Position numbers and translations under genes: made by a program. A stretch of DNA of 64,000 nucleotides from contig NC_086097.1 of assembly GCF_963921235.1 (NCBI RefSeq), forward strand, positions 107,820,001 through 107,884,000. The letters run 5' to 3'. The stretch is from Mobula hypostoma (lineage: Eukaryota). This document shows, piece after piece, positions 3,711 through 62,639 of the stretch. Each line of letters begins with the position of its first letter. Position 1 is the stretch's first letter. The notes beneath the pieces are model-generated. The model had not been told where the DNA came from. It made no database searches and saw only the letters and a program-made list of their open reading frames with translations.

Positions 3711-4283
3711 GCTAAATACCTCACTTTTTTAATATACAGTATTTCTGTTTTTGCACATCTTTTAAAATCTATTCAATATATGTAATTGATTTACTTGTTT
3801 GTTATTGTTCTATTTTTATTTATTATTATATTTACTCTCTCTGCTAGATTATGTATTGCATTGAACTGCTGCTGCTAAGTTAACAAATTTCATGTCACAT
3901 GCCGGTGATAATAAACCTGATTCTGATTCTAATCTGTTTAGAAACGTCCTCAATCCCAATGAACAGCCTCAGAAGAAAAGCAGTAAAATCCTGTGAGTTT
4001 TCCTAATTACATACTTCCATGTTGTCAATCATATACTTGGGCACTGAGGTTACTTTGCATCTGAGATCTCTGCGATCACTCACCATCTGGACATACTTTT
4101 GTTATTTTTCTTGCCAAAATTAACACTTCCACATCATCCTACATTTTTCCCTCAACAGATTCTGTTCAGCAGTTTGTCTGTTCCAGCATCTGCAGTCTCG
4201 TGTTTCCTTCCTACACAATGCTTCATTTGCTATTTTTGTACACTCTATCTACTTATATATCTTTGTAGCCTTCTCACATCTTA

Positions 4284-6697
4284 GAACACAGAACATACAA
4301 AAGTACAGCACAGTACAGGCCGTTCGGCCCACAATGTTGTGCCGACCCTCAAACCCTGCCTCCCATATAAGCCCCCACCTTAGATTCCTCCATATACCTG
4401 TCTAATAGTCTCTTAAACTTCACTAGTGTATCTGCCTCCACCACTGACTCAGGCAGTGCATTCCACGCACCAACCACTCTCTGAGTAAAAAACCTTCCTC
4501 TAATATCCCCCTTGAACTTCCCACCCCTTACCTTAAAGCCATGTCCTCTTGTATTGAGCAGTGGTGCCCTGGGGAAGAGGTGCTGGCTATCCACTCTATC
4601 TATTCCTCTTATTATCTTGTACACCTCTATCATGTCTCCTCTCATCCTCCTTCTCTCCAAAGAGTAAAGCCCTACCTCCCTTAATCTCTGATCATAATGC
4701 ATACTTTCTAAACCAGGCAGCATCCTGGTAAATCTCCTCTGTACCCTTTCCAATGCTTCCACATCCTTCCTATAGTGAGGTGACCAGAACTGGACACAAT
4801 ACTCCAAGTGTGGCCTAACCAGAGTTTTATAGAGCTGCATCATTACATCGCGACTCTTAAACTCTATCCCTCGACTTATGAAAGCTAACACTCCATAAGC
4901 TTTCTTAACTACCCTATCCACCTGTGAGGCAACTTTCAGGGATCTGTGGACATGTGCCCCGAGATCCCTCTGCTCCTCCACACTACCAAGTATCCTGCCA
5001 TTTACTTTGTACTCTGCCTTGGAGTTTGTCCTTCCAAAGTGTACAACCTCACACTTCTCCGGGTTGAATTCCATCTGCCACTTCTCAGCCCACTTCTGCA
5101 TCCTATCAATGTCTCTCTGCAATCTTTGACAATCCTCTACACTATCTACAACATTACCAACCTTTGTGTCGTCTGCAAACTTGCCAACACACCCTTCTAC
5201 CCCCACATCCAGGTCGTTAATAAAAATCACGAAAAGTAAAGGTCCCAGAACCAATCCTTGTGGGACACCACTAGTCACAATCCTCCAATCTGAATGTACT
5301 CCCTCCACTACCACCCTCTGCCTTCTGCAGGCAAGCCAATTCTGAATCCACCTGGCCAAACTTCCCTGGATCCCATGCCTTCTAACTTTCTGAATAAGCC
5401 TACCGTGTGGAACCTTGTCAAATGCCTTACTAAAATCCATGTAGATCACATCCACTGCACTACCCTCACCTATATGCCTGGTCACCTCCTCAAAGAACTC
5501 TATCAGGCTTGTTAGACACGATCTGCCCTTCGCAAAGCCATGCTGACTGTCCCTGATCAGACCATGATTCTCTAAATGCCTATAGATCCTATCTCTAAGA
5601 ATCTTTTCCAACAGCTTTCCCACCACAGACGTAAGGCTCACTGGTCTATAATTACCCGGACTATCCCTACTACCTTTTTTGAACACGGGAACAACATTCG
5701 CCTCCAATCCTCCGGTACCATTCCCGTGGACAACGAGGACATAAAGATCCTAGCCAGAGGCTCAGCAATCTCTTCTCTCGCCTCATGGAGCAGCCTGGGG
5801 AATATTCTGTCAGGCCCCGGGGACTTACCTGTCCTAATGTATTTTAACAACTCCAACACCTCCTCTCCCTTAATATCAGCATGCTCCAGAACATCAACCT
5901 CACTCATATTGTCCTCACCATCATCAAGTTCCCTCTCATTGGTGAATACCGAAGAGAAGTATTCATTGAGGACCTCGCTCACTTCCACAGCCTCCAGGCA
6001 CATCTTCCCACCTTTATCTCTAATCGGTCCTACCTTCACTCCTGTCATCCTTTTTTTCTTCACATAATTGAAGAATGCCTTGGGGTTTTCCTTTACCCTA
6101 CTCGCCAAGGCCTTCTCATACCACCTTCTTGCTCTCCTCAGCCCCTTCTTAAGCTCCTTTCTTGCTTCCCTATATTCCTCAATAGACCCAGCTGATCCTT
6201 GCTTCGTAAACCTCATGTATGCTCCCTTCTTCCTCCTGACTAGATTTTCCATCTCACTTGTTCCTTCACCCTACCATTCTTTATCTTCCTCACCGGGACA
6301 AATTTATCCCTTACATTCCGCAAGAGATCTCTAAACATCGACCACATGTCCAGAGTACATTTCCGTGCAAAAACATCATCCCAATTCACACCCGCAAATT
6401 CTAGCCTTATAGCCTCATAATTTGCCTTTCCCCAATTAAAGATTTTCCTGTCCTCTTTGATTCTATCCTTTTCCATGATAATGCTAAAGGCCAGGGAGCG
6501 GTGGGCACTGTCCCCCAGATGCTCACCCACTGAGAGATCTGTGACCTGACCCGGTTCATTTCCTAGTACTAGATCTAGTATGGCATTCCCCCTGGTCGGC
6601 CTGTCCACATACTGTGACAGGAATCCCTCCTGGACACACTTAACAAACTCTGCTCCATCTAAACCCTTGGAACTAATCAGGTGCCAATCAATATTAG
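4284..6697 (-). mobile_element. CR1 LINE, 5'-truncated ORF2 (end of endonuclease plus full RT), subfamily C
   Basis: ORFs 6240..6608, 5638..6252 and 4349..5707 ([31 protein letters not shown]) separated by frameshifts; 3' tail at ~4284. Confidence 0.97.
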
Positions 6698-7666
6698 GTG
6701 CAAATCAATATCTTCTTTATAACTTGCTTTCCTACTTAAACTTTGCATCATCAGAAATTTTAGCACCATACCTTCAACTCCGTGTAAGGCATGAAAATGC
6801 CCGACGCAGGTCTCTCATGGTCTGAGTGGACGTTCCCCTCCCTGTCCCCTTCAACGCCCTTCATTCATATGAAGTGTAACAGCACGAGGCAGCTCCAGCA
6901 CAGAATGCTCTAGAATACCACATATTTTGAATAAATCTCTGCTTTATGTTGGACAACCAATCCTCCATTTCCATCACTATATGATCTCCTAAACCATAAG
7001 GGTCTACATTCTGTAATAACCTTTAAGGTGGCACTTTATTAAATGTCTTATGAAAATCCAAGTGTTCAACATGTACCAGTTTCCCTCAACCACAGCACAA
7101 ATTACTTCAATAAATTGATTGGAAACAATTTCCCTTTCAAAAAACCATCTTAATTTTGGCTGATTACTTGGAACTTTTTTCAGTGACACCTTTAACAGTA
7201 ACTTCTCAAATTTTCCAAAAGACAGTTTTAAACTTATCATTCTTCCTTTTGAATGTAGAATTAACATTCACAATCTTCCAATCTGATTAACCTTCCGTAT
7301 CTATGGTAAATTTTAGAAAATTAAAACATCTCGAAAACATGGACGTGAGAAATTCTGCAGATACTGGAAATCCAAAGCAACACACACAAAATGCTAGAGG
7401 AGCTCAGCAAGTCAGGCAGCATCTATGGAAATGAACAGATAGTTGATGTTTCAGCCAAGGACTGGACTGCAAAATCCATTTCTTTTCAAACCGTCGGAAG
7501 AACCCAGAGAACTGTTAGGTACAGTACTACTCCTCAACCGATTTTAGTTTTTCCAAGTTTCATCCTCGCTTCCAATTCCTGATTCATAGCTATTTGTGAA
7601 ATGGTAAATGTATTTTCTATTAAAAAGACCGATGAAAAAGTTAATTCACTTGCTTATTTTCTAATA

Positions 7667-9240
7667 CAAGTTTCCCCCGCCATCCGAAGGTAGAGCGTTC
7701 CTATGAAACGGTTCGTAAGCTGAAATGTCGTAAAGCAAAGAAGCAATTACCATTTATTTATATGGGAAAATTTTGTGAGCATTCGCAGACCCAAAAATAA
7801 CCTACCAAATCATGCCAAATAACACATAAAACCTAAAATAACAGTAACATATAGTAAAAGCAGGAATGATATGATAAATACACAGCCTATATAAAGTAGA
7901 AATATTTTTCCACAATCATTGCCGGCACAGATCTCTGTAGCGAAAATCTCACGCAAGCGCCGTCGGCAGAAAATCTCACACAAGCGCTGTTGGCAAAAAC
8001 ATGGCGCAAGCGCTCTCCAGTAACCTTTAAACTATGACGCTGCCAAATCATACCAAATAACACATAAAAATACACAGCCGATATAAAGTAGAAATAATGT
8101 ATGTACAGTGTAGTATCACTTACCGGAATTGGTTCAGCACCGAGCACACTGATGATGGTGTGTTAGGCTGAGTCGGAGTTTCGGTGGTGCAGTGGCCCCC
8201 ACCCTCCGGGCCACTAACTGATACATTGCCGCGAAGCACGCAGGGGTCCAGCGGTAGCCGGGACGCACCCAGCACATCTTTAAGAAAAAAGCCAAAATAA
8301 ACATGCTAATTAATTACGTGCTGCCCGACACATAATTGTCGGCACAGATCAGTGCCGATTGCCAATTGCATCGCCTCTGATCTGGGCCGACAATTATGTG
8401 TTGGGCGGCACCTAATTAATTAGCATGTTTATTTCAGTTTTTTTCTTAAAGATGTGCTGTGTGCCTCCCGGCTACCGCTGCGTTCTCCGCGAATCGGTAC
8501 AGTATCTGTCTGAGGCCCAGGTGTTGGGGTGGTAGGACACAGGGGTGTCATCTCATCGTCGATCAGGGCAGGCAGCTCATCTTCTCCTATGACTGCCCGC
8601 CTCGATGTCGAAAGTCGAGGTTCGTCATCTGCTGTGGCTGATGTGGAAGGCTTGCTTGACTGCTGAGCCTCGCGCATTTTTCTATCACACAGTTCTTTGT
8701 AAGGACTCAAAGAATCTTGCAAATATCCCCTAAACCTACGTACCCTTTCAAAATTAAAGGCGTATGTTATCATTACTCATTCGGTTTCGGTTGTTATCCT
8801 TTCCTCTTCCAATTGCATCAGCTCTTCATCTATCAGTTCTTGTTCATGGGATGCCAAAACCTCTTCAACATCATCTTTGTCAGCTTCCACAAGCCAAATT
8901 CATTTTGTCCTTGCTTCGTTCACCACGATCAAAACACTTAATTATGTCTAGTTTTACGCCAAGTGTAACACCCTTACGAGCTCTTTCAGGCTTTTCCGAC
9001 ACCATAGAACTCATCTTGCAAACGACTGCTCACAGGTTCGTGTTAAAGCAATGCTGGCGAGAATGCCGTTCCGAATCCGGGGAGAGCGGCTGCTCGGGGC
9101 GCGCGCTGCTTTTTATCACGCGCTGAATTTTTTTCATAACAGTGAAAACACCTTCTGAAAGCGAAAACTGGGTACTAATGTAGGTCTTTCGTAACAGTGA
9201 GGTTTTGTAAAGCGAACATTGGAAAAGCGGGGGACACCTG
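7667..9240 (-). mobile_element. Tigger/pogo-type non-autonomous DNA transposon
   Basis: Imperfect TIRs CAAGTTTCCCCCGC... and ...GCGGGGGACACCTG, TA on both sides; transposase C-terminus-like remnant around ORF 8429..8773; related copy at 28225-28939. Confidence 0.8.
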
Positions 9241-19009: not shown

Positions 19010-19460
19010 CAAGTCAGTCCATGGCCTCCTCTTGAGCCAAGATGAAGCCACCCTCAGGATGGTATTCTGTCTGGGTGGCCTCCAACTTGATGGCAGAAAT
19101 GTCAAATTCTCCTTCCGAAAATGATTTCCCCTCCCAATTGCCTTAATTTATTCCCCACTCTTACCTATTCTCATCTGCCTATGACGTCCCCCTGGGTCCC
19201 CACCATCTTCCCTTTCTCCTATGGTCCACTATTCTCTCCTATCAGATTCCTTCTTCTCCAGCCTTTGACCTTTCCCACCCACCTGGATTCACCTTCAATT
19301 TCCAGCTAGCATCCTTCACCACCCCCACTTTTTTATTCTGGTATCTTCCCCCTTCCTTCTCAGTCCTGAAGAAGGGTCTCAGCCTGAAATGTCGACCATT
19401 TATTTACTTCCATAGATGTTGCCTGACCTGCTGAGTTCCTCCAGCAATTTGTGTGTGCTG
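19010..19460 (+). mobile_element. Penelope-like element 3' fragment with hammerhead motif at 19362-19397
   Basis: Colinear with 24400-25069; AGTCCTGAAGAAGGGTCTCAGCCTGAAATGTCGAC. Confidence 0.8.
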
Positions 19461-19649
19461 CTTTGGCAAAACTTGCCTGCTTTGGACTCAGTAGCCTAAC
19501 CCACTGTAAGGAGTCTCTGTACAGTGTTCCTATGGAATGCATGGGTTTTTACCGGGTGCTCCAGTTCCCTCCCACTGTCCAATGATGTACCAGGTAGGTT
19601 GATTGGTCATTGGACTGGTCTGGGCCTATTCTACGTTGTATCTCTAAAA

Positions 19650-20102: not shown

Positions 20103-22387
20103 ATATGCTGGCTCTTCTCAATTAACTCAAACATCTCTATTACCCTCACTTTATTCAGTTCCATTTCAATTACCTTCAATTGAATTTTTTTGTTTTTGAA
20201 GTAGGTCATAGGAACATAGAAAACCTACAGCACAATACAGGCCCTTCAGCCCATGATGCTGTGCCGAACAGGTACTTAATTTAGAAATTACCTTGGGTTA
20301 CCTATAGCCCTCTATTTTTCTAAGCTCCATGTCATAAACTCCTATCCAGGAGTCTCTTAAAAGATCCTACTGTATCCATCTCTACCTCTGTCGCTGGCAG
20401 CCCATTCTACGCACTCACCACTCTCTGTGTAAAAAACCCTGACATCTCCTCTGTATCTACTTCCAAGCACCTTAAAACTGTGCCCTCTCATGTTAGTCCT
20501 GGGAAAAAGCCTTTGTCGATACACATGATCAATGCCTCTCATCATCTTACACACTTCTATCAGGTCACCTCTCATCCTCCATCGCTCCAAGGAGAAAAGG
20601 CCAAGTTCACTCAACCTATTCTCATAAGGCATGCTCCCCAATCCAGGTAACATCCTTGTAAATCTCCTCTGCACACTTTCTATGTTTCCACATCCATCGT
20701 GTCGTGACATGACCAGAACTGAGCACAGTACTCCAAGTGGGGTCTAACCAGGGTCCTATGTAGATGCAACACTACCTCTCAGCTCTTAAATTCAATCCCA
20801 CAATTGATGAAGGCAAATGCACCGTATGCCTTCTTAACCATATAGTCAACCTGTGCTGCAGCTTTGAGTGTCCTGTGGACTTGGACCCCAAGATCCCTCT
20901 AATCCTCCATACTGCCAAGCGTCTTACCATTAATATTATATTCTGCCATCATATTTGACCTACCAAAATGAACCACCTCACACTTATCTGGGTTGAACTC
21001 CATCTGCCACTTCTCAGCCCAGTTTTGCATCCTATCAATGTCTCGCTGTAACCTCTGACAGTCCTCCACACTATACACAACACCTCCAACCTTTGTGTCA
21101 TCAGCAAATTTACTAACCCATCCCTCCACTTCCATCCAGGTCATTTATAAAAATCACGAAGAGTAGGGGTCCCAGAACAGATCCCTGAGGCGCACCACTG
21201 GTGACCGACCTCCATGCAGAATATGACCCGTCTACAACCACTCTTTGCCTTCTGTGTGCAAGCCAGTTCTGGATCAACATAGCAATGTCCCCTTGGATTC
21301 CATGCCTCCTTACTTTCTCAATAAGCCTTGCATGGGGTACCTTGTCAAATGCCTTGCTGAAATCCATATACACTACATCTACTGCTCTTCCTTCATCAAT
21401 GTGATTAGTCACCTCCTCAAAAAACTCAATAAGGCTCGTAAGGCATGACCTGCCTTTAACAAAGCCATGCTGACTATTCCAAAGCATATTATGCCTCTCC
21501 AAATGTTCATAAATTCTGTCTCTCAGGATCTTCTTCATCAACTTACCAACCACTGAAGAAAGACTCACTGATCTATAATTTCCTGGGTTATCTCTACTCC
21601 CTTTCTTGAATAAGGGAACAACATCTGCAACTCTCCAATCCTCTGGAACCTCTCCCGTCCCCATTGATGATGCAAAGATCATAAACCAGAGGCTCAGCAA
21701 TCTCCTCCCTCGCTTGCCACAGTAGCCTGGGGTACATCTCGTCCGGGTCCGGTGACTTATCCAACTTGATGCTTTCCAAAAGCTCCAGCACATCCCCTTC
21801 CTTAATATCTACATGCTCAAGCTTTTCAGTCTGCTGCAAGTCATACCTACAATCGCCAAGATCCTTTTCCATAGTGAATACTGAAGCAAGGTATTCATTA
21901 AGTACCTCTGCCATCTCCTCTGCTTCCATACACACTTTTCCATTGTCACACTTGATTCGTCCTATTCTCTCACGTCTTATGCTCTTGCTCTTCACATACT
22001 TGTAGAATGCCTTGGGATTTTCCTTAATTATGCTCGCCAAGGCCTTCTCCCCCCCGCTTCTGGCTCTTCGAATTTCATTCTTAAGCTCCTTCCTGCCAGC
22101 CTTATAATCTTCTAAATCTCTTTCATTATCCAGTTTTTGAACCTTTCCGAAGCTTTTCTTTTCTTCTTGACGAGATTTTCAACTGCCTTTGTACACCACG
22201 GTTCCTGTATGCTACCATCCTTTACCTGTCTCATGGGAACATACCTACGCAGAACCCCATGCAAATATCCCCTGAACATTTAAAAACGCAAACACGAGGA
22301 ATTCTGCAGATGCTGGAAATTCAAGCAACACACATCAAAGTTGCTGATGAACTCAGCAGGCCAGGCAGCATCTCTAGGAAGAGGTAC

Positions 22388-22423
22388 AATCGACGTTTCA
22401 GGCCGAGACCCTTCATCAGGACT
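22388..22423 (-). ncRNA. Minimal type I hammerhead ribozyme motif in PLE terminus
   Basis: Minus strand AGTC CTGATGA A GGGTCTCGGCCT GAAAC GTC GATT. Confidence 0.7.
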
Positions 22424-23410
22424 AACTGAAGGAAGAGTTAGCAAGAGATTTGAAAGTGGGAGGGGGAGGAGGAGATCCAAAATGATAGGAGAAGACGGGG
22501 GGGGGGTGGGGGATGGAGCCAAGAGCTGGACAGGTGATTGGCAAAGGGGATATGAGAGGATCATGGGACAGGAGGTCCGGGGAGAAAGACAAGCGGGGGG
22601 GTAACCCAGAGGATGGGCAAGGGGTATAGTCAGAGGGACAGAGGGAGAAAAAGGAGAGTGAGAGAAAGAATGTGTGTATATAACTAAATAACAGATGAGA
22701 TACGAGGGGGAGGTGGGGCCTTAGCGGAAGTTAGAGAAGTCGATGTTCATGCCATCAGGCTGGAGGCTACCCAGACGGAATATAAGGTGTTGTTCCTCCA
22801 ACCTGACTGTGGCTTCATCTTTACAGTACAGGAAGCCGTGGATAGACATATCAGAATGGGAATGGGATGTGGAATTAAAATGTGTGGCCACTGGGAGATC
22901 CTGCTTTCTCTGGCGGACAGAGCGTAGGTGTTCAGCAAAACAATCTCCCAGTCTGCGTCGGGTCTCGCCAATATATAGAAAGCCACATCGGGAGCATCGG
23001 ACGCAGTATATGACCCCAGCCGACTCACAGGTGAAGTGTCACCTAATCAGTTCTCCGCAACCACCACTCTGCTCCATCTAGCGGAATTAGTCCTTACTCT
23101 TAATACAAATGCTTGTAATTTCTCCTTTGGCTCCTCCTACTTCCTCCAAACTAAAGGTGTAGCTATGGGCACCCATATAGGTCCTAGCTATGCCTGCCTT
23201 TTTGTTGGCTTTGTGGAATAATCTATGTTCCAAACCGATTCTAGTACCTGTCCCCCACTTTTCCTTCGCTACATCGATGACTGCATTGGCGCTGATTCCT
23301 GCACGCATGCTGAGCTCGTTAACTTCATTAACTTTGCCTCCAACTTTCACCCTGCCCTCAAGTTTACCTGGTCCATTTCCAACACCTCCCTCCCCTTTCT
23401 AGATCTTTCT

Positions 23411-23579
23411 TTTTAAATCTTTTTACTAAGTAAGTATACAAAAAGGTAAGCCATATAGACACTAATACATTGTTAGAATATAATAAAATTACAGAAGATA
23501 TTAATACAAAAAAAAACTACAAACAATGTAATTTAAACATAATATACCAAGGTAACATAATAGTATACTAATTTTATAA
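23411..23579 (-). mobile_element. Short AT-rich retroposed fragment nested in the PLE RT region
   Basis: Flanked by 8 bp direct repeat ATCTTTCT (23403-23410, 23580-23587); PLE frame continues on both sides. Confidence 0.6.
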
Positions 23580-24424
23580 ATCTTTCTGTCTCTATCTCTG
23601 GAGACGGCTTATCTACTGATGTCTACTATAAGCCTACTGACTCTCACAACTATCTGGACTATTCCTCCTCTCACCCTGTCTCTTGCAAAAATGCCATCCC
23701 CTTCTCACAATTCCTCCGTCTCCGCCGCATCTGCTCTCAGGATGAGGCTCTTCATTCCAGGACAAGGGAGATGTCCTCCTTTTTTAAAGAGAGGGGCTTC
23801 CCTTCCTCCACCATCAACTCTGCTCTTAAACGCATCTCCCCCATTTCATGCACATCTGCTCTCACTCCATCCTCCCGCCACGCCACTAGGAATAGGGTTC
23901 CCCTGGTCCTCACTTACCACCCCACCAGGCTCCGGGTCCAACATATTATTCTCCCTAACTTCTGCCACCTCCAACGGGATCCCACCACTAAGCACATCTT
24001 TCCCTCCCCCCGCCCCTGCTTTCTGCAGGGATCGCTCCCTACACGACTCCCTTGTCCATTCGTCCCCCCCATCCCTCCCCACTGATCTCCCTCCTGGCAC
24101 TTATCCTTGTAAGCGGAACAAGTGCTACACATGCCCTTACACTTCCTCCCTTACCACCATTCAGGGCCCCAGACAGTCCTTCCAGGTGAGGCGACACTTC
24201 ATCTGTGAGTCGGCTGGGGTGATATACTGCGTCCGGTGCTCCCGATGTGGCCTTCTATATATTGGCGAGACCCGACGCAGACTGGGAGATCGTTTTGCTG
24301 AACACCTACACTCTGTCCGCCAGAGAAAGCAGGATCTCCCAGTAGCCACACATTTTAATTCCACATCCCATTCCCATTCTGATATGTCTATCCACAGCCT
24401 CCTCTACTGTAAAGATGAAGCCAC

Positions 24425-24592
24425 CTCAGCCAATAGGCTGGTCCTGGACTTATTTCCTGGCATAATTTACATATTACTATTTAACTATTTATGGTTTTAT
24501 TACTATTTAATTACTTATGGTGCAACTGTAACGGAAACCAATTTCCCCCGGGATCAATAAAGTATGACTATGATTATGACTATGACTATGAC
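24425..24592 (+). mobile_element. LINE 3' tail fragment (Rex1/L2-like) nested in the PLE endonuclease
   Basis: AATAAA followed by (ATGACT)n; absent from the homologous PLE copies at ~22820 and ~50565. Confidence 0.65.
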
Positions 24593-24971
24593 TACACTCA
24601 AGTTGGAGGAACAACACCTTATATTCTGTCTGGGTAGCCTCTAACCTGCTGGCATGAACGTTGACTTCTTTAACTTCCGCTAATGACCCACCTCCCCCTC
24701 ATAACCCATCCGTTATTTATTTATATACACACACATTCTTTCTCTCTCTCTCTCCTTTTTCTCCCTCTGACTATACCCCTTGCCCATCCTCTGGGATTTT
24801 CCCCCTCCCCCTCTTCCTTCTCCCTGGGCCTCCTGTTCCATGATCCTCTCATATCCCTTTTGCCAATCACCTGTCCAGCTCCTGGCTCCATCCCTCCCCC
24901 TCCTGTCTTCTCCTATCATTTTGGATCTCCCCCTCCCCCTTTCAAATCTCTTACTAGCTTTTCCTTCAGTT

Positions 24972-25007
24972 AGTCCTGATGAAGGGTCTCCGCCCGAAAC
25001 GTCGACT
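24972..25007 (+). ncRNA. Minimal type I hammerhead ribozyme motif in PLE terminus
   Basis: AGTC CTGATGA A GGGTCTCCGCCC GAAAC GTC GACT. Confidence 0.75.
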
Positions 25008-26325
25008 GTACCTCTTCCTGGAGATGCTGCCTGGCCTGCTGCGTTCATCAGCAACTTTGATGTGTGTCTCCTGAACATTTGCCATATTTCTTCCATATGT
25101 TTCCCTGAGAACATCTGTTTCCAACTTATGCTTCCAAGTTCCTGCCTGATCACCTCAGATTTCCTCTTACTCCAATTAAATGTTTCCCTAACTTGTTTGT
25201 TCCTATCCCTCTCCAATGCAATGGTAAAGGAGATAGAAGTGGGATCAGTATCTCCAAAGTGCACTCCCACTGAGAGATCTGACACCTGACCAGGTTCATT
25301 TCCCAATACCAGATCAAGTACTGCTTCTCTTCTTGTAGACTTATCTACATATTGTGTCAAGAAACCTTCCTGACCACACCTAACAAACTCCACCCCATCT
25401 AAACCCCCCACTCTGAGGAAATGTCAATCAATATTTGGGAAATTAAAATCTCCCACCACAACAACCCTGTTATTATTATTCTTTTCCAGAATCTGTCTCC
25501 CTATCTGCTCTTTGATGTCCCTGTTACTATTGGGTGGTCTATAGAAAACACCCAGGAAAGTTATTGGCCCTTTCATGTTCGTAACCTCCACCCACAGAGA
25601 CTCCGTAGACAACCTCTCCATGACCTCCTCTTTTTCTACAGCCGTGACGCTATCTCTGATCAACAGTGCCACACCCCCACCTCTTTTGCCTCCCTCCCTG
25701 TCCTTTCTGAAACATCTAAAGCCTGGCACTTGAAGTAGCCATTTAAGTCTCTGTAACGGCTACAACATCATAGCTCCAAGTGCTGATCCACACTCTAAGC
25801 TCATCCACTTTATTCATAACACTCCTCACATTAAAATAGACACATCTCAAACCATCGGTCCGAATGCGTCCCTTCTCTATCATCTGCCTATCCTCCCTCT
25901 TACACTCTCTCCAAGTTTTCTCTATTTGTGAGCCAACCTCCCCTTCCTCTGTCACTTCAGTCCTGTTCCCACCCCCCAGCAATTCTAGTTTAAACTCTCC
26001 CCAATATCCTTAGCAAACCTCGCTGCCAGGATATTGATCCCCCTGGGATTCAAGTGCAACCCGTCCTTTTTGTACAGGTCATATCTGCCCCAAGAAGAGG
26101 TCCCAATGATCCAGAAATCTGAATCCCTGACCCCTGCTCCAATCCCTCAGCCACGCATTTATCCCCCACCTCATTCTATTCCCATACTCACTGTCATGTA
26201 GCACAGGCAGTATTCCCAACATTATTACCTTTGAGGTCCTGCTTCTCAACTTCCTTCCCAACTCCCTGTAGTCTGCTTTCAGGACCTCCTCCCTTTTCCT
26301 GCCTATTTATTGGTACCAATATGTA

Positions 26326-29057: not shown

Positions 29058-29714
29058 CTGAAAATGTGCCTTAATGCCAGCTTTCGCCATGGTGAAAGGT
29101 CATTGATATGGAACACTAACCTATAATTTCTTTTATGTTTTATTGTTGGGGCTGTAACTGCATCATATGACATTCTAATATTGTCTTCACCAGTCTGATA
29201 GGCTTTGCAGTGCTCCACTGAGAAATGTAAAAAAAATGTCAAATTTCCTGGGATGAAAACTTGTTGCTTTCGTTATGAACCATTCAAATTTCTGCTGCAA
29301 TATCAAGCAGATGCCACGTAGCTGTAACCTCAGCAATCAACCCTTACAGACACAGAAGCAATACACAACACCTATCCACTGGAGAGCACTTCTTCGCTTT
29401 ACATGACAGAGGGCAGAAGCCAAGAAATACAGAAGTGTTTATGATCAAGGAGGCCAAGCAGACTACAGTCAGACTAGGCTACAGTCAGGGATTATTGGCA
29501 GGAGGAGGGCTCTTCTCATAGTGTGGCCTAGTGTCTCAGAAATAACATGATCTCATGAGAAATATTCAGGTGAGCCCTAAAGTTCTCCAGAATTGAACAA
29601 GGATCTCCTTGTTATCGGTACAACCTTTAGCATCTGCTCCATTCGCACTTTGCTGACTCCCTTTCCTTAGACCACATTCTTACTCACATACACAAAATGC
29701 TTTTATCTCAGTTG

Positions 29715-29976
29715 CAAACAACAGGAATTCTGCAGATGCTGGAAATTCAAGCAACACACATCAAAGTTGCTGGTGAATGCAGCAGGCCAGGCAGCATCTC
29801 TAGGAAGAGGTACAGTCGACGTTTCAGGCCAAGACCCTTCGTCAGGACTAACTCTTCTCTTACTAACTCTTCCTTCAGTTAGTCCTGACGAAGGGTCTCG
29901 GCCTGAAACGTCGACTGTACCTCTTCCTAGAGATGCTGCCTGACCTGCTGCGTTCACCAGCAACTTTGATGTGTGT
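29715..29976. mobile_element. Palindromic mini-PLE insertion (two inverted terminal repeats, hammerheads at 29814-29849 minus and 29881-29916 plus)
   Basis: Arms are near-perfect reverse complements; flanked by TGCTTTTATCTCAGTTG at 29698-29714 and 29977-29993. Confidence 0.88.
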
Positions 29977-32688
29977 TGCTTTTATCTCAGTTGTCTTCTT
30001 TCACTCTCTCTTCCTTTCCACATGTCCCTGTCCCTTTCTTTTGTCTATCTCTACCTCTATCCTTCTTACCTTCTCTGCATATCTTTTTACCTGACTCTTC
30101 CCCTCTTCCCGCCCCTATATTCATGCCCACACACTCACTCTCTCTCTCTCTCGCATTTCTTTCCATCTCTGTTGGACTCGATCACTCATTTCTTGCTTTG
30201 TCTGCGCTGTTATTCAGTGTGAGAAAGTTTCCCTAGGCATAACATCATTGTTTCTAACAAAGTTGGCTCTGTACTGGGTCAGAATCATACTGTAGTTGCA
30301 GGACAGTCTTGATGTTGCAGTTGGGATCTGCTGCAGAGTGTTGTGAAGTGGTGGGGAGCTTCTGACATTGGCGAGGGGCAAGGTTCAAACATCCATCCTC
30401 CACAAAACTTCCCCCTCCCCTCCCCACCTCACCACTGAGCAACTCTCTCTCTTCCCTCATGTACCATACCCCAGCCTCTCACATAACACACGGTAAGTCT
30501 GCCCCCACCTCTGTCATCTGCCAAATTCTTCTCAAACACACAATACACACATTGACAACAACTCTGTCACTGCACTAGCGCACTTAGTTCTTCAGCCCAT
30601 TTGTTCCCCAACATCCACCCTCAAGCACACATGACCGTCCACAAAAGCTTCCAAGGAGGCAATAATCTACTCAACAAACTTCAGAGCTTTCATCTGAGGT
30701 TGGCAAATATGCAGGAGATTAAAGGAGAGCATATGGGACTTCATAAATACTTGGACACGCAAACAAAGAAAAGCTTACACAAGGGCAAGGAATACTGCTG
30801 TCCAACAGACCATGAGTTTTGCACTAAGCAATCATAAAATTCTCGTTTTCTCAACATGATCAAGAGCTTTGCTAGCGCATTGAGAGCTATTGTGAATTCC
30901 ATTATTAGAAATAGAGCAGGTCAAAGGCTAGGTGAGCAATTCACCTCCTCTGTGTCTTTTTCACCATCTACAAGGCACTAGTCAACAACATGATGGAAAC
31001 TTCTCTGCTAGCCAGGATGAATGCACTTTCAACACTCAGGAAGCCTGGCACCACACAGGACAAAGCAACCTGCTTAATTGGCTTACATTCATCACGCAAG
31101 ATATTTATTCTTCACATCATCTGCTCACAGGCTTTGTACCAATAACAAAATGAATGCCAGTTTCTGATCTGGACCAATTTGAAAGCACCTCACAGAAGAC
31201 GGTGGCAGGTGTATGAGAGCACCACACCTGCAGCCTTCCCTCTAAGTCACACGTTACCCAGTCTTGGCAATAAATGGTCATTCTTTCAATACTATTGAAT
31301 CTAAATACCAGGCTCCATATTGAAGAACACTGTGAGAGTACCTTCACTAGAAGGATTGCAGTTTTCCAAACAGTAGCCCTGTGACATCTTAGATCAGTTA
31401 GGATGTGGCCTGATGAAGGATTTCGGCCCAAGACATTGACTCCTTATTCCTCTCCATAAATGCTGCCTGACCTACTGAGTTCCTCCAGTTTTTTCTGCGT
31501 GTTATTCAGGATTTCTAGCATCTGCAGAAGCTCCTGTGTTTACAATTAAAAATGGGGTGGGCAATAAACACTGGCTTTTCTAGAACTCCACATATCTTAA
31601 AAAAGTAAACTGAAAGAATTTTATAAGGATGAAAAAATAACCTACTGTCATTTGCCACAAAATGACCTATTTTTGTGATCTTTTTCCATTCCTTTATTAC
31701 ATTCAATGGAGTTTTTTTAAATTGAGAAGACAATGACTGTGGCTCCTGACAAGGCTGTCCTTTCATACGGCCTCAGTAAGTTGTCCAGGTAATCAGGCAC
31801 TGGTATCAGAAGCAACCAGAGCTGCCAATGGCAGCTTGTTATTATCAGGCTCTCTTACTGCCTTACGATTTAATGCTAGCAATCATTGCAAAATAAAGCA
31901 GATGCTTAAAAATGATATAATCCTTTAAAGGCAGAATTCATTAAAAAAAAATCGAACAGTGGTACAGAGTGATACCAAGATGGATCCAATCCTGTAAGGG
32001 GAGCAAGACACCATCTCCACCGAGCCATATCACCACAAGCTGCCAAACAGGCAGAAGGACGGGCTACCCTTCATGCCTTACAGCTACAGAAATGTCAATC
32101 GGTCCAACGTTATTACTGGAGAAAACTCTCCATAGGGTAAAATACTATATATCTGCCTGAAGAAGGTTGTAACAAAGCTCTAGGGTCTCTTTTCGTTTCC
32201 AGAAGCTTCACAGAAACAGCAGGATCCCAGTGTGCTAATCAAAGTATTGTCTAGGTCTATAATTGTATTAATTAATTGCAAAGAAAGGCTGCAAAGTTAC
32301 AAAATTAACAGCTGCTTCAAATTATGCCATGAGGTTAATGAGAGTCTTTTCTTGATCAAGTGTGAAGTCTACTTGCACCTGTTAGGTAAGCAATATTCTG
32401 TTTAATCTGGATGAGACTGATAAATGTCCTTCAGAACTCAGTGAGTTATCCTCATTGCTCTCATCCTAAATAAGCAGCAGCACACTTAACTGTAAGCATT
32501 CTTAAGTAAATGACATGATGAGCACTTAGATGATTTCTAATAGTCAAGAGGATATTGTTACAAGGATCACTCCTTAGTAATAATGATGAGAGAAGCACAG
32601 GAGAATCTGTGATTACCGACAAGTACCTTTACTGTCTAAACTATCAAGCATGTGACTTCATACATTAAGTACCTGTGTGCACACTCAC

Positions 32689-32774: not shown

Positions 32775-35700
32775 GTCATATAACCATATAACCACATAAC
32801 AATTACAGCACAGAAACAGTCCATCTCGGCCCTTCTAGTCCGTGCGGAACTCTTACTCTCACCTAGTCCCACCGACCTGCACTCAGCCCATAACCCTTCA
32901 TTCCTTTCCTGTCCATGTAGCTGTCCAATTTAACTTTAAATAACAACATCGAATCTGCCTCAACCACTTCTGCTGGAAGCTCATTCCACACAGCTACCAC
33001 TCTCTGAGTAAAGAAGTTCCCCCTCATGTTACCCCTAAACTTTTGCCCTTTAACTCTCAACTCATGTCCTCTTCTTTGAATCTCCCCCACTCTCAATGGA
33101 AAAAGCCTATCCACGTCAACTCTATCTATCCTCCTCATAATTTTAAAATACCTCTATGAAGTCCCCCCTCAACCTTCTACACTCCAAAGAATAAAGACCC
33201 AACTTGTTCAACCTTTCTCTGTAACTTAGGTGATGAAACCCAGGTAACATTCTAGTAAATCTTCTCTGTACTCTCTCTATTTTGCTGACATCCTTCCTAT
33301 AATTCGGTGACCAAAACTGTACACGATACTCCAAATTTGGCCTCACCAATGCCTTGTACAATTTCAACATCACATCCCAACTCAATGCTCTGATTAATAA
33401 AGACCAGTATACCAAAAGCTTTCTTCACCACCCTATCCACATGAGATTCCACCTTCAGGGAACTATGCACCATTATTCCTAGATCCCTCTGTTCTATTGC
33501 ATTCTTCAATGCCCTACCATTTACCATGTATGTCCTATTTTGATTAGTCCTACCAAAATGTAGCACCTCACATTTATCAGCATTAAACTCCATCTGCCAT
33601 CTTTCAGCCCACTCTTCTAACCGGCCTAAATCTCTCTGCAGGCTTTGAAAACCTACTTCTTTATCCACAACTCCACCTATCTTAGTATCATCTGCATACT
33701 TACTCATCCAATTTACCACCCCATCATCTAGATCATTAATGTATATGACAAATAACATTGGACCCAGTACAGATCCCTGGGGCACACCACTAGTTACCAG
33801 CCTCCAATCTGACAAACAGTTATCCACCACTACTCTCTGGCGTCTCTCATCCAGCCACTGCTGAATCCATTTTACTACTTCGATATTAATGCCTAACGAT
33901 TGAACCTTCCCAACCAACCTTCCGTGTGGGATCTTGTCAAAGGCCTTACTGAAGTCCATATAGACAACATCCACTGCTTTACCCTTGTCAACTTTCCTAG
34001 TAACCTCTTCCAAGAATTTCAATAAGATTTGTCAAAACACGACCTTCCACGCACAAATCCGTGTTGACTGTTCCTAATCAGACCCTGTCTGTCCATTTAA
34101 TTATATATACCATCCCTAAGAATACTTTCCATCAATTTACCCACCGCTGACGTAAAAACACACAGGCCGATAATTGCTAGGTTTACTCTTAGAACCCTTT
34201 TTAAACAATGGAATTACATGAGCAATACGCCAATCCTCTGGCACCATCCTCGTTTCTAATGACATTTGAAATACTTCTGTCAGAGCCCCTGCTATTTCCA
34301 TACCAACTTCCTGGTCCTAGGGAATATCCTGTCAGGACCCAGAGACTTATATTCAACTTTTATATTCCTTAAAAGCTCCAGTACTTCCTCTTCTTTAATC
34401 ATCATAGTTTCCACAACTTCCCTACCTGCTTCCCTTATCTTACCCAATTCAATATCCTTCTCCTTAGTGAACACCGAAGAAAAGAAATTGTTCAGAATCT
34501 CCCCATCTCTTTTGGCTCCACACATAGCTGTCCACTCCAATTTTCTAAGGGACCAATTTTATCCCTCACTATCCTTTTGCTATTAATATAACGGTAGAAA
34601 CCCTTGGGATTCATTTTCACCTCACTTGCCAAAGGAACCTCATATCTTCTTTTAGCTTTACTAATTTCTTTCTTAAGATTCTTTTTACATTCTTTATATT
34701 CCTCGAGCACCTCATGCTGCCTATATTTATTGTAGATATCTCTCTTTTTCCGAACCAAGTTTCCAATATCCCTTGAAAACCACGGCTCTCTCAAACTTTT
34801 AACCTTTCCTTTCAACCTAACAGGATCATAAAGATTCTGTACTCTCAAAATTTCACCTTTAAATGACCTCCATTTCTCTATTACATTCTTCCCATAAAAC
34901 AAATTGTCCCAATCCACTCCTTCTAAATCCTTTCACATCTCTTCAAAGTCAGCCTTTCTCCAATCAAAAATCTCAACCCTGGGTCGAGACCTATCCTTCT
35001 CCATAATTATATTGAGACTAATAGCATTGTGATCACTGGACCTGAAGTGCTCCCCAACACAAACCTCCGTCACCTGACCTATCTCATTCCATAACAGGAG
35101 ATCCAACACTGCCCCTTCTCTAGTTGGTACTTCTATGTATTGCTGTAAAAAACTACCCTGCACACATTTTACAAACTCCAAACCATCCAGCCCTTTTACA
35201 GTATGGGCTTCCCAGTCTATGTGTGGAAAATTAAAATCTCCCACAATCACAACCTTGTGCTTACTACAAATATCTGCTACCTCCTTACAAATTTGCTCCT
35301 CCAATTCTCGCTCCCAATTTGATGGTCTATAATACTCCCCCATAAGAGTTACTACGCCTTTCCCATTCCTCAATTCTACCCAAATAGCTTCCCTAGACAA
35401 GCCCTCCAATCTATCCTACCAGAGCACCACTGTAATATTTTCTCTGACAAGCAATGCAACACCTCCCCCGTTTTCCCTCCGATTCTATCACACCTGAAGC
35501 AATTAAATCCAGGAATATTTAGTTGCCAATCACACCCCTCCTGTAACCATGTTTCACTAATAGTTACCACATCATACTTCCAGGTATGAATCCATGCTTT
35601 AAACTCCTCCACCTTTCTTATAATGCTCCTAGCATTAAAATAAATGCATTTAAGATATTTTCCACTTCTTACTCTCTGTTTATCACTAATGGTGCAAACA

Positions 35701-36995
35701 ACTTCACTATTTTCTTTTTCCTCCTTATTCCCTATATCTGTTCCTACACTCTGGTTGCCCTTCCCCCTCGTATCTAGTTTTAATCCACCAGCATCTCTAG
35801 CAAACCTACTTGCAAGAATATTTGTCCCCCTCCAGTTCAGATGTAGACCGTCCCGCCGGAACAGGTCCCACCTTCCCTGGAAAACTGCCCAATTATCTAT
35901 AAATCTGAAGCCCTCCTTCCTGCACCATGTCTTCAGCCACGTGTTGATCTGCGCTATCTTATTATTTCTAAACCCGCCTGCACGTGGCACTGGTAGCAAT
36001 CCTGAGATTGCTATCCTGGAGGTCCTGTCCTTTAACTTGGCGCCTAACTCCCTAAACTCTCCTTTCAGGACCTCCTCACTCTTCCTACCCACGTCATTGG
36101 TCCCTACATGGACAACGACATCCGGCTGCTCACCCTCCCTCTCGAGAATACCATAAACTTGATCCAAGATATCACAGACCTTCGCACCAGGGAGGCAACA
36201 GATCATCGGGGATTCTTGATCTCTTCCACAGAACCTCTTATCTGTCCCCCTAACTATCAAATCCCCTATCACCACAGCTCTCCTCTTTTCCCTCCTGAGT
36301 TGAGGGTCCCATCTTGGTGCCAGAGGTGCAACCACTGCAACTTGTCCCTGGTAGGTCATCCCCATCAACAGTATCCAAAACGGTGTACTTATTACTGGTG
36401 GGAACGGCCATAGGGGTGCTCTGCTCATTCTGTCTATTCCCCTTCCCTCTCCTGACAGTCACCCAGCTACCTGTCTCCTGACCCTTAGGGGTGACTATCT
36501 CCCTGTAACTCCTCTCTATTTCTGCCTCTGCCTCCCAAATGATCCGAAGTTCATCTAGCTCCAGCTCCAGTTCCCTAACTTGGTTTGTCAGGAGCTGCAG
36601 ATGGATGCACCTTTCGCAGGTGTAGTTATCAGGGACGATTGTGCTCGCCCTGACTTCCCACATCCTGCAAACTGAGCACTCAACTGCCCTAACTGCTGCC
36701 TCCATTACCTACTCTTAAGGTAATTAAATTAATTAAAGGAACTTATCCGGCCTTACCACACTTAGAGTGAAGCTCTTCCTCAGCTTCTGCTCGCCAAAGC
36801 CTCCCTATTCTGTCTCCCTCTGCTCTGTCACCCGCTCCGTTAATCTGCTCTCTTTTAAATACTCCCGCTGCCTCATGGTCCAATTTACACGTGCTTGCAC
36901 AGTCATGCCCCGTTCAACTGCCGAAGAAAATGACTGACTTCCACAAACTGCTCTCTTTCAAATACTCCCGCTGCCTCACGGTCCGACTTACACGC
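32775..36995 (-). mobile_element. Near full-length CR1 LINE (5' UTR, ORF1, ORF2, 3' tail), inactivated by frameshifts
   Basis: ORF1 from 36705 with CxxC...CxxC, leucine zipper and SGNH esterase motifs (IGDL, VHVGTND, DGLHLN); ORF2 from YFNARSI through GDFN, SDH, GVPQG, YADD. Confidence 0.96.
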
Positions 36996-42491: not shown

Positions 42492-42853
42492 CTATCGTGC
42501 TTATCCACACAAATCCCAATTCCTGCATTAATTCTGTACTCCCTATGCTGATTATCGTGCCTATCCACACAAATCCCAATTCCTGCATTAATTCCGTATT
42601 CCCCTATGCTGATTATCGTGCCTATCCACACAAATCCTAATTCCTGCATTAATTCCGTATTCCCCTATGCTGATTATCGTGCCTATCCACACAAATCCCA
42701 ATTCCTGCATTAATTCCGTACTCCCCTTTGCTGATTATCGTGCCTATCCACACAAATCCCAATACCTGCATTAATTCCGTATTCCCCTATGCTGATTATC
42801 GTGCCTAACCACACAAATCCCAATACCTGCATTAATTCCGTATTCCCCTATGC
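42492..42853. repeat. Minisatellite, about 6 copies of a 60-61 bp unit
   Basis: Unit TATCGTGCCTATCCACACAAATCCCAATTCCTGCATTAATTCCGTATTCCCCTATGCTGAT, at the 3' UTR end of an old CR1 (42860-43440). Confidence 0.95.
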
Positions 42854-47719: not shown

Positions 47720-48210
47720 AAGCGCTACATGTTTGGACTGTGGGAGGAAACCAGAGCACCCAGAGGAAACCCATGTGGTCATGGGGAGAATGTACAAACT
47801 CCTGCAAACAGCAGCAGGAAATACCTGCATTGCTGGTACTGTAAAGCGTTGTGCTAATCACATTGCTGGTACTGTAAAGCGTCGTGCTAATCACATTGCT
47901 GGTACTGTAAAGCGTCGTGCTAATCACATTGCTGGTACTGTAAAGCGTCGTGCTAATCACATTGCTGGTACTGTAAAGCGTCGTGCTAATCACATTGCTG
48001 GTACTGTAAAGCGTCGTGCTAATCACATTGCTGGTACTGTAAAGCGTCGTGCTAATCACATTGCTGGTACTGTAAAGCGTCGTGCTAATCACATTGCTGG
48101 TACTGTAAAGCGTCGTGCTAATCACATTGCTGGTACTGTAAAGCGTTGTGCTAATCACATTGCTGGTACTGTAAAGCGTCGTGCTAATCACTACACTACC
48201 ATGCCGCCCC
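47720..48210 (-). mobile_element. tRNA-derived SINE with expanded head region
   Basis: Minus strand GGGCGGCATGGTAGTGTAGTGATTAGCAC head and typical body. Confidence 0.7.
47828..48191. repeat. Tandem repeat, 11 x 33 bp, near-perfect
   Basis: Unit CATTGCTGGTACTGTAAAGCGTCGTGCTAATCA; no spacers. Confidence 0.98.
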
Positions 48211-50116: not shown

Positions 50117-51016
50117 GCCACATAATTCTCCGCAACTTCCGCCATCTCCAATGGGATCCCACCACCAAGCACACCTTTCCCTCTCCCTCACTTTCTGCTT
50201 TCAGCAGGGATCACTCCCGACACAACTCCCTTGTCTATTCCTCCCTCCCCAATGATCTCCCTCTTGGCACAAGTGCCATACCTGTCCCTACACCTCCTCC
50301 CTCAATACCATTCAGGGCCCCTAACAGTCCTACCAGATGAGGTGGTCATTCAGCTGTGAGTCAGTTGGGGTCGTATACTGTGTCTGGTGTTCCCAGTGTG
50401 GCCTCCTGCATATCGGTGAGACCCGACCTAGACTGGGAGACCGCTTTGCCGAGCACCTATGCTCCATTCACCAGAAAAAGTGGAATCTCCCAGTGGCCAC
50501 CCATTTTAATTCCACTTCCCATTCTGTTATGTCCATTCATGGCTTACTCCACTGTCGTGATGAGGCCACACTCAGGTTGGAGAAACAACACCTTATATTT
50601 CATCTGGGTAGCCTCCATCCTGATGAAATTAACATCCATTTCTCGAACTTCTATTAATTCCCCCCCTTCACCATTCCCCATCCCCTTTTCCCTCTCTCAC
50701 CTTATTCCCTTGCCCGCCCATTGCCTCTCTCTGGTGCTCCTCCCCTCTTTTCTTTCTTCCATGGCCTTCTGTCCTCTTCTATCAGACCGGCCCTTCTCCA
50801 GCCCTGTATCTGCATTTCACCAGTCACCTTCTGTTTCTTTCTCCCCCCATCATTTAAATCCCCTCCTCAGCTTTTTTTTTGCAGTCCTGCTGAAGAATCT
50901 CAGCCCAAAAGGTCGACTGTACTCTTTTCCATAGATGCTGCCTGGCCTGCTGAGTTCCTCCAACATTTGGTGTATATTGTTTGATTTCCAGCATCTGCAG
51001 ATTTTCTCTTGTTTGT
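50117..51016 (+). mobile_element. Penelope-like element fragment (GIY-YIG plus terminal repeat)
   Basis: ORF 50337..50657 GVVYCVWCSQCGLLHIGETRPRLGDRFAEH; degenerate hammerhead at ~50883-50918. Confidence 0.9.
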
Positions 51017-52735: not shown

Positions 52736-53533
52736 CTACAGAGCAGAAAGTAATTGGTAAAATGCTTAAATAATCTTATGAAAATTCACAACACAGGTAC
52801 TGCCCCCCACCTTGACTGCTTGGTGCAGGCATGCTCAAAGATGCAAATTTCCCCTCATAAACAATGATGCAAACTAATCAAAACAAGCACTTTGTTCAGT
52901 TTTGCTCTCCTTCAACTCTCTTTCATCAGCACACCATAAACACAAGAGATTCGGCAGATACTGGAAAGGCAGAGAAACACACACAAATTACTGGAGGAAC
53001 TCAGCAGGTCAGGCAGCATCTATGGAGAGAAGTAAAGAGTCAACATTTTGGGCTGAGACCCTCCAGCATTTTCTGGGTACTGCTCTTTCATCAGCACTGG
53101 TTCCCAACAGGTTTGAACATTTATGTTACATTTTGGTTCACATATATCCCAATCTATTGTAGGCATAATGCTGAAACTTGAGAAATCAGTTTTTTGTACT
53201 ATTTATTGGAAGGGTAAGTTAGCTTTTTTGAGACCCCTTTTAATATTTGTGTATATACATACTGTCAACAGAACTGGGAATGTCAAACATCAGCTTTATG
53301 GTGAAAAGGAGATGGCGAGGTTGAACAGTACAAATGGAATATCTCTGAAAAGGTGAGACCAGGTTCTGGAGGTGATCCCATTGCTTACGGATCTATCAGG
53401 CTGATAGATTAATGAGGATATTGAGAAAATAAAAAAAGGAACTTGTTAAAGCTGTGAAACACCAGTCACATTTATGGTAGAAAACTGAAACCAGAAGGTG
53501 GCTGGAAAATACCCAGGAACAATCACTGTAGAG

Positions 53534-54384: not shown

Positions 54385-54967
54385 GCAAACACGAGGAAAT
54401 CTGCAGATGCTGGAAATCCAAGCAACACACACAAAAAATGCTGGTGAACGCAACAGGCCAGGCAGCATCTACAGAAAGAGGTACAGTCGACGTTTCCGGC
54501 CGAGACCCTTCGTCAGGACCAACTGAAAGAAGAGATAGTAAGAGATTTGGAAGTGGGAGGGGGAGGGGAGATCCGAAATGATAGGAGAAGACAGGAGGGG
54601 GAAGGATGGAGCTAAGAGCTGGAATGTTGATTAGCAAAAGGGATACGAGGCTGGAGAAGGGAGAGGATCATGGGACGGGAGGCATAAGGAGAAAGAAAGG
54701 GGGAGGGGAGCCCACTATAGTGAGAGGGACAGAGGGAGAAAAGAGAGAGAGAGAGAAAAAAGGGGGGGGGTAAATAAATAAATATGGGATGGGGTACAAA
54801 GGGGAGGTGAGGCATTAACAGAAGTTCATGCCATCAAGTTGGAGGCTACCCAGACGGAATATAAGGTGTTGTTCCTCCAACCTGAGTGTGGCTTCATCTT
54901 TACAGTAGAGGAGGCCGTGGATAGACATATCAGAATGGGAATGGGATGTGGAATTAAAATGTGTGGC
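54385..54967 (-). mobile_element. Penelope-like 3' fragment with hammerhead motif at 54485-54520
   Basis: Closely similar to 22286-22890; minus strand GGTC CTGACGA A GGGTCTCGGCCG GAAAC GTC GACT. Confidence 0.88.
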
Positions 54968-61958: not shown

Positions 61959-62205
61959 ATACTTCCCTTTATCAACCAAGACAAAGAATACAAGATGCAG
62001 CCTTGCCTGCTGAGTTCCTCCAGCATTTTGTGTGTTGCTCAAGATCAGAGAGGTTATGTATACAACACTGGTTAGATCATAGCTTGAATATTGTGTAAAG
62101 TACATCAGAGGAAAGATGTAATTGAACAAAAGATGACGCAGATATTTACAAAGGTGTTGCTAGTATGGAAATATAGTAGCCATGAAGTGAGGTCAGAAAG
62201 CTCAA

Positions 62206-62463
62206 ACACGAGGAATTCTGCAGATGCTGGAAATTCAAGCAACACACATCAAAGTTGCTGGTGAACGCAGCAGGCCAGGCAGCATCTCTAGGAAGAGGTA
62301 CAGTCGACATTTTGGGCCGAGACCCTTCGTCAGGACTAACTGAAAGAAGAGTGAGTAAGAGATCTCTTACTAACTCTTCCTTCAGTTAGTCCTGACGAAG
62401 GGTCTCGGCCCGAAACGTCGACTGTACCTCTTCTTAGAGATGCTGCCTGGCCTGCTGCGTTCA
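62206..62463. mobile_element. Palindromic mini-PLE insertion (hammerheads at 62302-62337 minus and 62388-62423 plus)
   Basis: Loopless centre GTAAGAGATCTCTTAC; TSD TCAGAAAGCTCAA at 62193-62205 and 62464-62476. Confidence 0.88.
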
Positions 62464-62639
62464 TCAGAAAGCTCAAGTTGTTTTCCTTTGAAAGGGAAGG
62501 CAGACAAAAGACTAAAGTGTGATACATAAAGGCATGTTTGGCAGGAGTATGGTAACCAGAAAGTGGAGGGATGGAGAGGAAGGTAGATGTCATAGCCAGT
62601 AAAAACAGGCAGGAACAAAATATTAGATATAATAGGACA

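Follow-up and report, generated by a model that had tools for sequence, protein, structure and literature searches.

The locus described here raises the question of what a minimal hammerhead motif does in the terminal repeat of a Penelope-like element (PLE), and whether it routinely cuts the RNA of its element as a dimer, as a preliminary description of the sequence had proposed. The motif lies on the plus strand of a 64,000-nt window, that is, the whole stretch of DNA analysed, from Mobula hypostoma (assembly GCF_963921235.1, contig NC_086097.1, positions 107,820,001 to 107,884,000). Core positions are given in hammerhead numbering, and splice-like sites are judged by the splice consensus.

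Table 1. Features of the hammerhead motif, of its host elements in the window, and of related tandem arrays elsewhere in the genome
Feature	Position	Strand	Remarks
Minimal type I hammerhead motif	24972..25007	+	Sequence, structure descriptor, predicted fold
Stem I, 5' strand	24971-24975	+	
CUGAUGA core box	24976-24982	+	
Extra A	24983	+	
Stem II	24984-24987 with 24992-24995	+	Loop 24988-24991
GAAA; CGUC	24996-24999; 25000-25003	+	
Predicted cut; stem I, 3' strand	after 25003; 25004-25008	+	
Predicted 3' splice site just before stem I	24952..24969	+	Branch-like TACTA(A/G)C, pyrimidine tract, CAG
5'-truncated, broken Neptune-type PLE arm	23041..25066	+	Short 3' end, about +65
Inverted second arm of the same insertion	22288..23044	-	Own hammerhead 22388-22423; long tail (about +104)
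Target-site duplication, left copy	22271..22281	+	11 bp or slightly more
Target-site duplication, right copy	25070..25080	+	
Short inverted two-arm insertion	29714..29988	.	Hammerheads 29814 (minus) and 29881 (plus); ~17-bp target duplication
Short inverted two-arm insertion	62202..62470	.	Hammerheads 62302 (minus) and 62388 (plus); ~13-bp target duplication
Truncated copy	54385..54967	-	Hammerhead 54485; G10.1-C11.1 pair broken
Older copy, lineage with C at core position 6	50119..51015	+	Motif near 50883
Older decayed copy	19228..19463	+	Motif near 19362; stem III palindrome broken
Tandem array L367 (G000:C2)	L367:2473-3735		310-nt unit, 4.1 units; one hammerhead per unit, predicted GT/AG joint
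Tandem array L373 (G000:C50)	L373:1495-1960		310-nt unit, 1.5 units; one hammerhead per unit, predicted GT/AG joint
Tandem array L368	L368:2025-2561		262-nt unit repeated twice; different, microhomology-type joint

The letters of the motif are exactly as first described, and the CUGANGA and GAAA boxes and the NUH triplet are present in type I order, both in the sequence and by a structure descriptor. Stem I, formerly read as AGTC with GACT, does pair, although its length is five base pairs rather than four, a U.G or C-G pair being added. Stem III had been described as the bare palindrome ACGU without a loop, which is the case in all four lineage profiles, with a loop length of 0 in 27 of 27 descriptor matches. 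The extra A, an unpaired base between positions 9 and 10.1 that was said to be conserved in all copies, is present in 98% of the young copies (n = 46) and in 96% of the old ones (n = 71). The full pattern had been listed for seven copies in the window and is found in four of them (24972, 29814, 29881, and 62388), whereas the copy at 19362 has GAAAT and GACC, that at 22388 has GATT, and that at 54485 has GGTC and GCCG. The replacement of GAAAC by AAAAT at 62302, a core broken by CpG decay, is seen as reported, as are decayed versions near 31408, 47103, and 50883. Two further partial copies, absent from the first list, lie on the minus strand at 7342-7462 and 52937-53117.

The descriptor of minimal hammerheads matches five times in the window, against a mean of 0.04 and a maximum of 1 in 100 dinucleotide shuffles. 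In an 864-kb sample of the genome, made up of three contiguous blocks and twenty scattered 10-kb pieces, all 27 matches belong to one family and fall at one place in the element. Since all published hallmarks of the class are present as well, a chance resemblance to a hammerhead is hardly conceivable, even though no Rfam family matches at gathering or E-value thresholds and the extended downstream hairpin has folding z-scores of only -0.7 to -1.0, which are not significant. The 24972 motif lacks the closed stem III of the curated model for canonical type I hammerheads. It is a real, intact copy of a known hammerhead kind from Penelope-like terminal repeats, and its sequence supports the earlier identification as a minimal type I motif that would fold only as a dimer.

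The proposed terminal-repeat context is likewise borne out, as the motif occurs in both repeats of full-length units. The copy that carries the 24972 motif is dead and truncated, with the motif about 70-105 nt before its 3' end. Its arm holds a reverse transcriptase (RT) with YIDD and thumb, a CxxxxCxxC linker, a GIY-YIG nuclease, the 3' UTR, the hammerhead, and the 3' end, and is broken by stops, frameshifts, and two AT-rich insertions. These insertions occupy 23415-23580 and 24430-24595, and the second ends in a (TATGAC)n run. The second arm is joined to the first head to head, with the two hammerheads of this insertion on opposite strands; on its own strand the 24972 copy has no partner within the insertion, and it is likely inert.

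Walking upstream from genome copies gives full units of about 3.5 kb, each terminal repeat carrying a single hammerhead. At nine of ten long loci, one motif precedes the start codon and a second follows 3.2-3.7 kb on, mostly at 3,505-3,518 bp; the distance from motif to start codon is 138 nt (123 nt at one locus), and the second motif comes about 330 nt after the stop. A coding constraint on the motif was considered and discarded because of stops in the frame of the ORF. Locus L328 has an open frame of 1,016 amino acids in which RT motifs, a CKRNKCYTC linker, and GIY-YIG can be read by eye. This frame fits Neptune or Nematis as described in PMC8557442, where the Cys linker is given as common to both clades. 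The broken PLE frames of the window gave no match in Pfam, the intact ORF gave only a weak RT match, and a search of solved structures gave none. Partial tandems, inverted 5'-truncated arms, and a tail at one end only are all found in this family; the last is a published PLE trait (PMC8557442) and matches the long and short 3' ends seen here. Of the 56 young copies in the 864-kb sample, 22 are paired in inverted orientation, and in all 11 pairs one arm has the long 3' end and the other the short one. This count excludes the window's own 22388/24972 pair, which the script missed.

Each of the features named in the preliminary description, including the extra A, the palindrome, and the dimer idea, was already published in 2014, in a study describing minimal hammerheads in the pLTRs of metazoan PLEs as a class with all the hallmarks and low in vitro activity, even as dimers (PMC4209133). 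The motifs of that study and the present one are alike in being type I, without loop III, and with a palindromic 15.2-16.2 (elsewhere 15.1-16.1), an extra base between 9 and 10.1, and a stem I of 4-5 bp. They are also alike in their arrangement: each terminal repeat has one motif, some 3 kb from the other, and lone copies are frequent, as are close pairs on opposite strands. Compared with what is reported there, helix II is 4 bp with a tetraloop instead of the 7-8 bp of the Schistosoma mansoni families, the copy number is far above the 4,000-9,000 of coelacanth and Xenopus, most young copies have G.U at 10.1-11.1, an A6C lineage exists, and variety is low, as only one family is involved. The supplementary alignment of the same paper may already contain a motif from a cartilaginous fish. 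What is new is thus a family member at very high copy number, the kind itself having been described. A literature search that covered mostly titles and the starts of abstracts, and subscription journals only thinly, turned up no publication that deals with this family, with A6C in PLEs, or with PLE circles made by splicing.

A 31-mer has 50,694 exact matches in the 3.48-Gb genome, against 0 for the control, and the 24972 copy is one of more than 50,000 that are nearly identical. The 864-kb sample contains 148 copies of a downstream anchor, 117 of them with the motif region, which extrapolates roughly to several hundred thousand copies genome-wide. Differences among copies lie mostly at CpG sites. 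In 46 young copies, the non-CpG core positions A9, A13-A15.1, and U16.1 are kept in 98-100%, the same as the flank, and the CpG positions G8 and G12 in 89% and 91%, beside 91% and 85% at a downstream CpG. The core therefore decays like its surroundings, which indicates that inserted copies decay neutrally.

Changes at the level of lineages are of another kind. Stem I shows U.G in place of C-G as well as an A.C mismatch; the other changes are G.U at 10.1-11.1, a GUU triplet, changes in loop II, and A6C. All of them, except the one A.C mismatch, keep pairing or are known tolerated variants. The 10.1-11.1 pair, which is G-C in the 24972 copy, is G-C in 34 and G.U in 38 of 81 sampled copies, these being the ones among the 148 in which the motif and its 5' part are recognisable. 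A compensatory change CGGTC/GACCG in lineage O2 was also considered and rejected, as the copies with GACCG keep CAGTC. The A6C motif has 395 exact genome matches; 24 of 30 such loci lack the spacer of the young family, and most have flanks of their own in common. C at core position 6 occurs in 18 of the 117 sampled copies, or about 15 once three joint artefacts are removed, and marks an older amplified lineage (50883 in the window; L201-L230).

Identity among the four lineage profiles is 87-95% over the 38-nt motif, against 48-67% in the upstream flank, 45-73% in the spacer just downstream, and 75-91% at +16 to +47, although the motif value is inflated because three of the four profiles were chosen with patterns covering the motif. 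The same contrast between motif and flank appears in the 71 old copies found through the downstream anchor. Only one of the 11 invariant core positions has changed at lineage level; with seven changes across the 38 positions, this is no significant shortfall. Stem cells pair in 86.9% of cases among the 81 copies, and the covariation score of the stems is 0.159 against 0.162 when shuffled, in a set with little power, as it represents one closely related and neutrally decaying family. Between lineages the motif is under selection, perhaps but not necessarily for its catalysis; the region at +16 to +47 is almost as conserved, so that conservation does not single out catalysis.

Hammerhead dimer cleavage is reportedly treated in a paper by Lunse, Weinberg and Breaker. 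In the present family, the predicted monomer pairs G5-A6-C7-G8 with C15.2-C17 to form a self-blocked rod, the probability of the G8-C15.2 pair being 0.97. The double hammerhead is predicted to lie 10.6 ± 2.2 kcal/mol above two monomers in the young family (24 of 30 loci, with intact stem I), 8.2 kcal/mol in lineage O2 (23 of 30 loci scored), and 2.4 ± 2.0 kcal/mol in the C6 lineage (14 of 24 loci scored), on nearest-neighbour energies that omit tertiary core contacts. According to these models, A6C removes the self-blocking helix of its lineage. Close inverted pairs were discarded as possible dimer partners, as motifs on opposite strands cannot share one transcript.

If cut RNA served as the template for insertion, copies would be expected to begin at the cut site. 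Genome-wide, GTC-GAC is intact across the cut in 74,203 copies, and in 498 the three bases ahead of the cut are foreign; the corresponding counts at control positions are 114 at -8, 248 at +4, and 319 at -34. After manual scaling for the probability that all three bases are foreign (0.42, or 0.28 at -8), these become about 1,180 at the cut site and about 405, 590, and 760 at -8, +4, and -34. Joints at the cut site are thus 1.6-2.9 times as frequent as at the controls, an excess that could reflect real cleavage, yet they account for at most about 1.6% of copies. Thirty of these joint loci comprise 23 inversions, 4 internal joints, and 3 plain ones, with GAC(T) microhomology in at least 11 as judged by eye. 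A pile-up of 5' ends at the cut site can be dismissed, given plain joints at only 3 of 30 loci compared with 10, 3, and 14 of 30 at the controls. Three of the inversion joints (L054-L056) have one extra A directly before the cut-site G, perhaps added without a template where an RNA truly ended.

Longer copies tell the same. Among 30 of the 385 loci running from tail to ORF, 21 extend past the 5' motif and 9 end between +16 and +96, with none ending at 0; none of the 21 long copies begins at the cut site, nor does any of the 56 young copies in the 864-kb sample, where the nearest begin at +7, +7, -5, and -7. The 3' ends of the young copies lie 47-115 nt past the cut site, at +61 to +76 in 22 and at +95 or more in 25 of the 56. 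Overall, insertions reach roughly 70 or 105 nt beyond the cut and almost always include it. Many copies are truncated at the 5' end just within or ahead of the motif's 5' half (16 of the 56 young ones start between -17 and -41), where self-complementary stems may favour inversion joints. In this genomic record, cut RNA has seldom been the template. Because inserted copies come nearly all from RNA that was uncut there, the motif likely cuts RNA only rarely, although the record may under-report cleavage if cut RNA is a poor template or serves as mRNA only. Religated circles, or cut RNA acting only as mRNA, would leave an identical insertion record.

The closest functional parallel is PAc, a Poseidon element from Anolis carolinensis, for which PMC11167929 reports a hammerhead that cuts only with protein and is dispensable for insertion, the uncut RNA being the main template and catalytic mutants having no effect on insertion in vitro. 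In both elements the 3' end falls at one of two positions in the tail, beyond the cut site and separated by about 35 nt, and both appear to use uncut RNA as the main template with both target strands extended. In PAc, however, the ORF starts inside the hammerhead, whereas the present motif does not code and precedes the start codon, which lies 138 nt past the cut; the present element has a Cys linker, which Poseidon is described as lacking, and protein-assisted cleavage, shown for PAc, is here only an analogy.

Taken together, sequence, folding models, and analogy make it probable that the motif is a slow, self-blocked ribozyme that cuts rarely, as a pair, and with the help of the element's protein. 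In a monomer, core bases G5-G8 would pair with CGUC of stem III, locking the RNA into a rod. A read-through transcript of a partial tandem would carry two motifs, and reverse transcription, starting at either of two sites in the tail, would mostly copy such RNAs uncut. A smaller share would be cut after GUC once two motifs are brought together, and the cut ends might then be joined into circles, or the cutting might trim mRNA. That the family processes its RNA by routine dimeric self-cleavage, as first proposed, is not supported, given inserted copies that run through the cut site and the roughly 10 kcal/mol by which the double hammerhead is predicted to be less stable; the opposite strands of the close pairs in the window and the lack of stem covariation in the low-power set point the same way. 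Rare or protein-assisted cleavage may still occur.

Routine, spontaneous cleavage by dimers that set the RNA ends used for transposition would explain why the palindromic ACGU is kept in all lineages and why each full ORF is flanked by two same-strand motifs, and dimers of such motifs do cut in vitro, if weakly (PMC4209133). The modest excess of joints at the cut site would also fit, and a seamless GUC-GAC is expected from religated circles too. Such a reading is nonetheless improbable, as no long or sampled young copy begins at the cut site, 3' ends lie well beyond it, and the double hammerhead is strongly disfavoured in prediction even in natural 310-nt tandems, where the intermolecular stem III pair has probabilities of 0.000 and 0.002. 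Rather unlikely, though less so, is that the motif is kept as a fold or binding site within a replication signal of the terminal repeat, together with the tail and the splice site, its catalysis being vestigial. This would agree with the absence of covariation in the low-power set of 81 copies, with the conservation of +16 to +47, and with G.U at 10.1-11.1 in 65% of the 46 young copies. It would also agree with the amplification, to about 15 of 117 sampled copies, of a lineage with A6C, a change that slows the reaction in Mg2+ and is known from an active phage hammerhead (PMC7151607), with the spread of Naiad PLEs, described as having no canonical hammerheads (PMC8557442), and with insertion of the anole element in vitro despite catalytic mutations. 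Against vestigial catalysis, the single changed core position has turned into the variant of an active natural hammerhead, the C6 lineage has lost the blocking helix and narrowed the dimer gap, which fits a trade-off in a working ribozyme, and the anole motif does cut with protein (PMC11167929). The rarely cutting, protein-assisted ribozyme is accordingly the best explanation. With tens of thousands of copies, the family offers a test bed for what PLE hammerheads do, read from counted insertion ends.

Beside the hammerhead, the terminal repeat contains splice-like sites. A similar consensus is known from Penelope of Drosophila virilis, whose intron ends at helix I (PMC4209133); in both elements a 3' splice-site consensus stands at the 5' edge of stem I, but splicing is only predicted here, no donor could be recognised within the terminal repeat, and none of 30 joints at -34 comes from an element-derived donor. 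Thirty of the 319 matches at -34, the predicted acceptor, comprise 15 inverted and 14 plain joints and 1 local deletion, with neither a 5'-end pile-up nor a shared donor. Short tandems make up about 9 of the 30 tail-to-ORF loci and join +176 to +408 back to -32 to -156, one exception reaching about -1,440, mostly with 1-4 nt of microhomology. One of these joints, +276/-34, is blunt and lies between CAT|GT and CAG|TT, behind a branch-like motif and a pyrimidine tract; the G allele at the CAT|GT donor is found in 19 of about 55 sequences examined, duplicates included.

The +276/-34 joint occurs four times in L367 and twice in L373, which lie on different contigs with their own target duplications, normal 3' ends, and four allele differences. 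As L373 has no repeat by which a DNA crossover could make its second joint, its template was a circle or a multimer. That one of about 11 joints should coincide with GT/AG by chance has a probability near 0.04; against a splicing origin, the 30 other joints at -34 include none with an element-derived donor, and it is possible that the joint shared by the two arrays is a single old deletion that later diverged. Four contig sets from sequencing runs that are not recorded as RNA contain neither a joint at the cut site nor the 310-nt junction, a result that weighs neither way.

The units of L367, L373, and L368, of 262-310 nt, derive from the PLE terminal repeat and, being short tandem units each with a ribozyme, resemble animal non-LTR retrozymes (PMC7229834; 10.64898/2026.07.22.740005). 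The window copy lies outside such arrays and has no short tandem units, and classical retrozymes are described with canonical hammerheads, tertiary contacts, and proven circular RNAs. The preprint among these sources derives retrozymes from pLTRs and reports cleavage of one of nine dimers. It can tentatively be suggested from the sequences that a predicted 310-nt exon, running from an acceptor 2 nt ahead of stem I to a GT donor at +276, is spliced into small circles copied by RT into arrays, which would then be nascent retrozymes, alongside an A6-to-C lineage freed of its self-blocking helix. The circles might arise by back-splicing, or by forward splicing that places the terminal hammerheads 310 nt apart, followed by cutting and ligation. 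If these side finds hold, splicing would be a concrete way in which retrozymes arise from PLE terminal repeats, and the A6 and C6 motifs would form a natural pair for asking whether such motifs are tuned mostly off.

The window also holds other repeats. LINE-type fragments, likely of the CR1/L2 type, are found at 720-1385, 4349-5749, 21113-21808, 33297-34031, and 35376-36458, with RT matches and a GDSL-esterase ORF. Two young minisatellites are present, one at 42493-42853 with 5.9 units of 61 bp and 96% matches, and another at 47828-48191 with 11 units of 33 bp and 99% matches.
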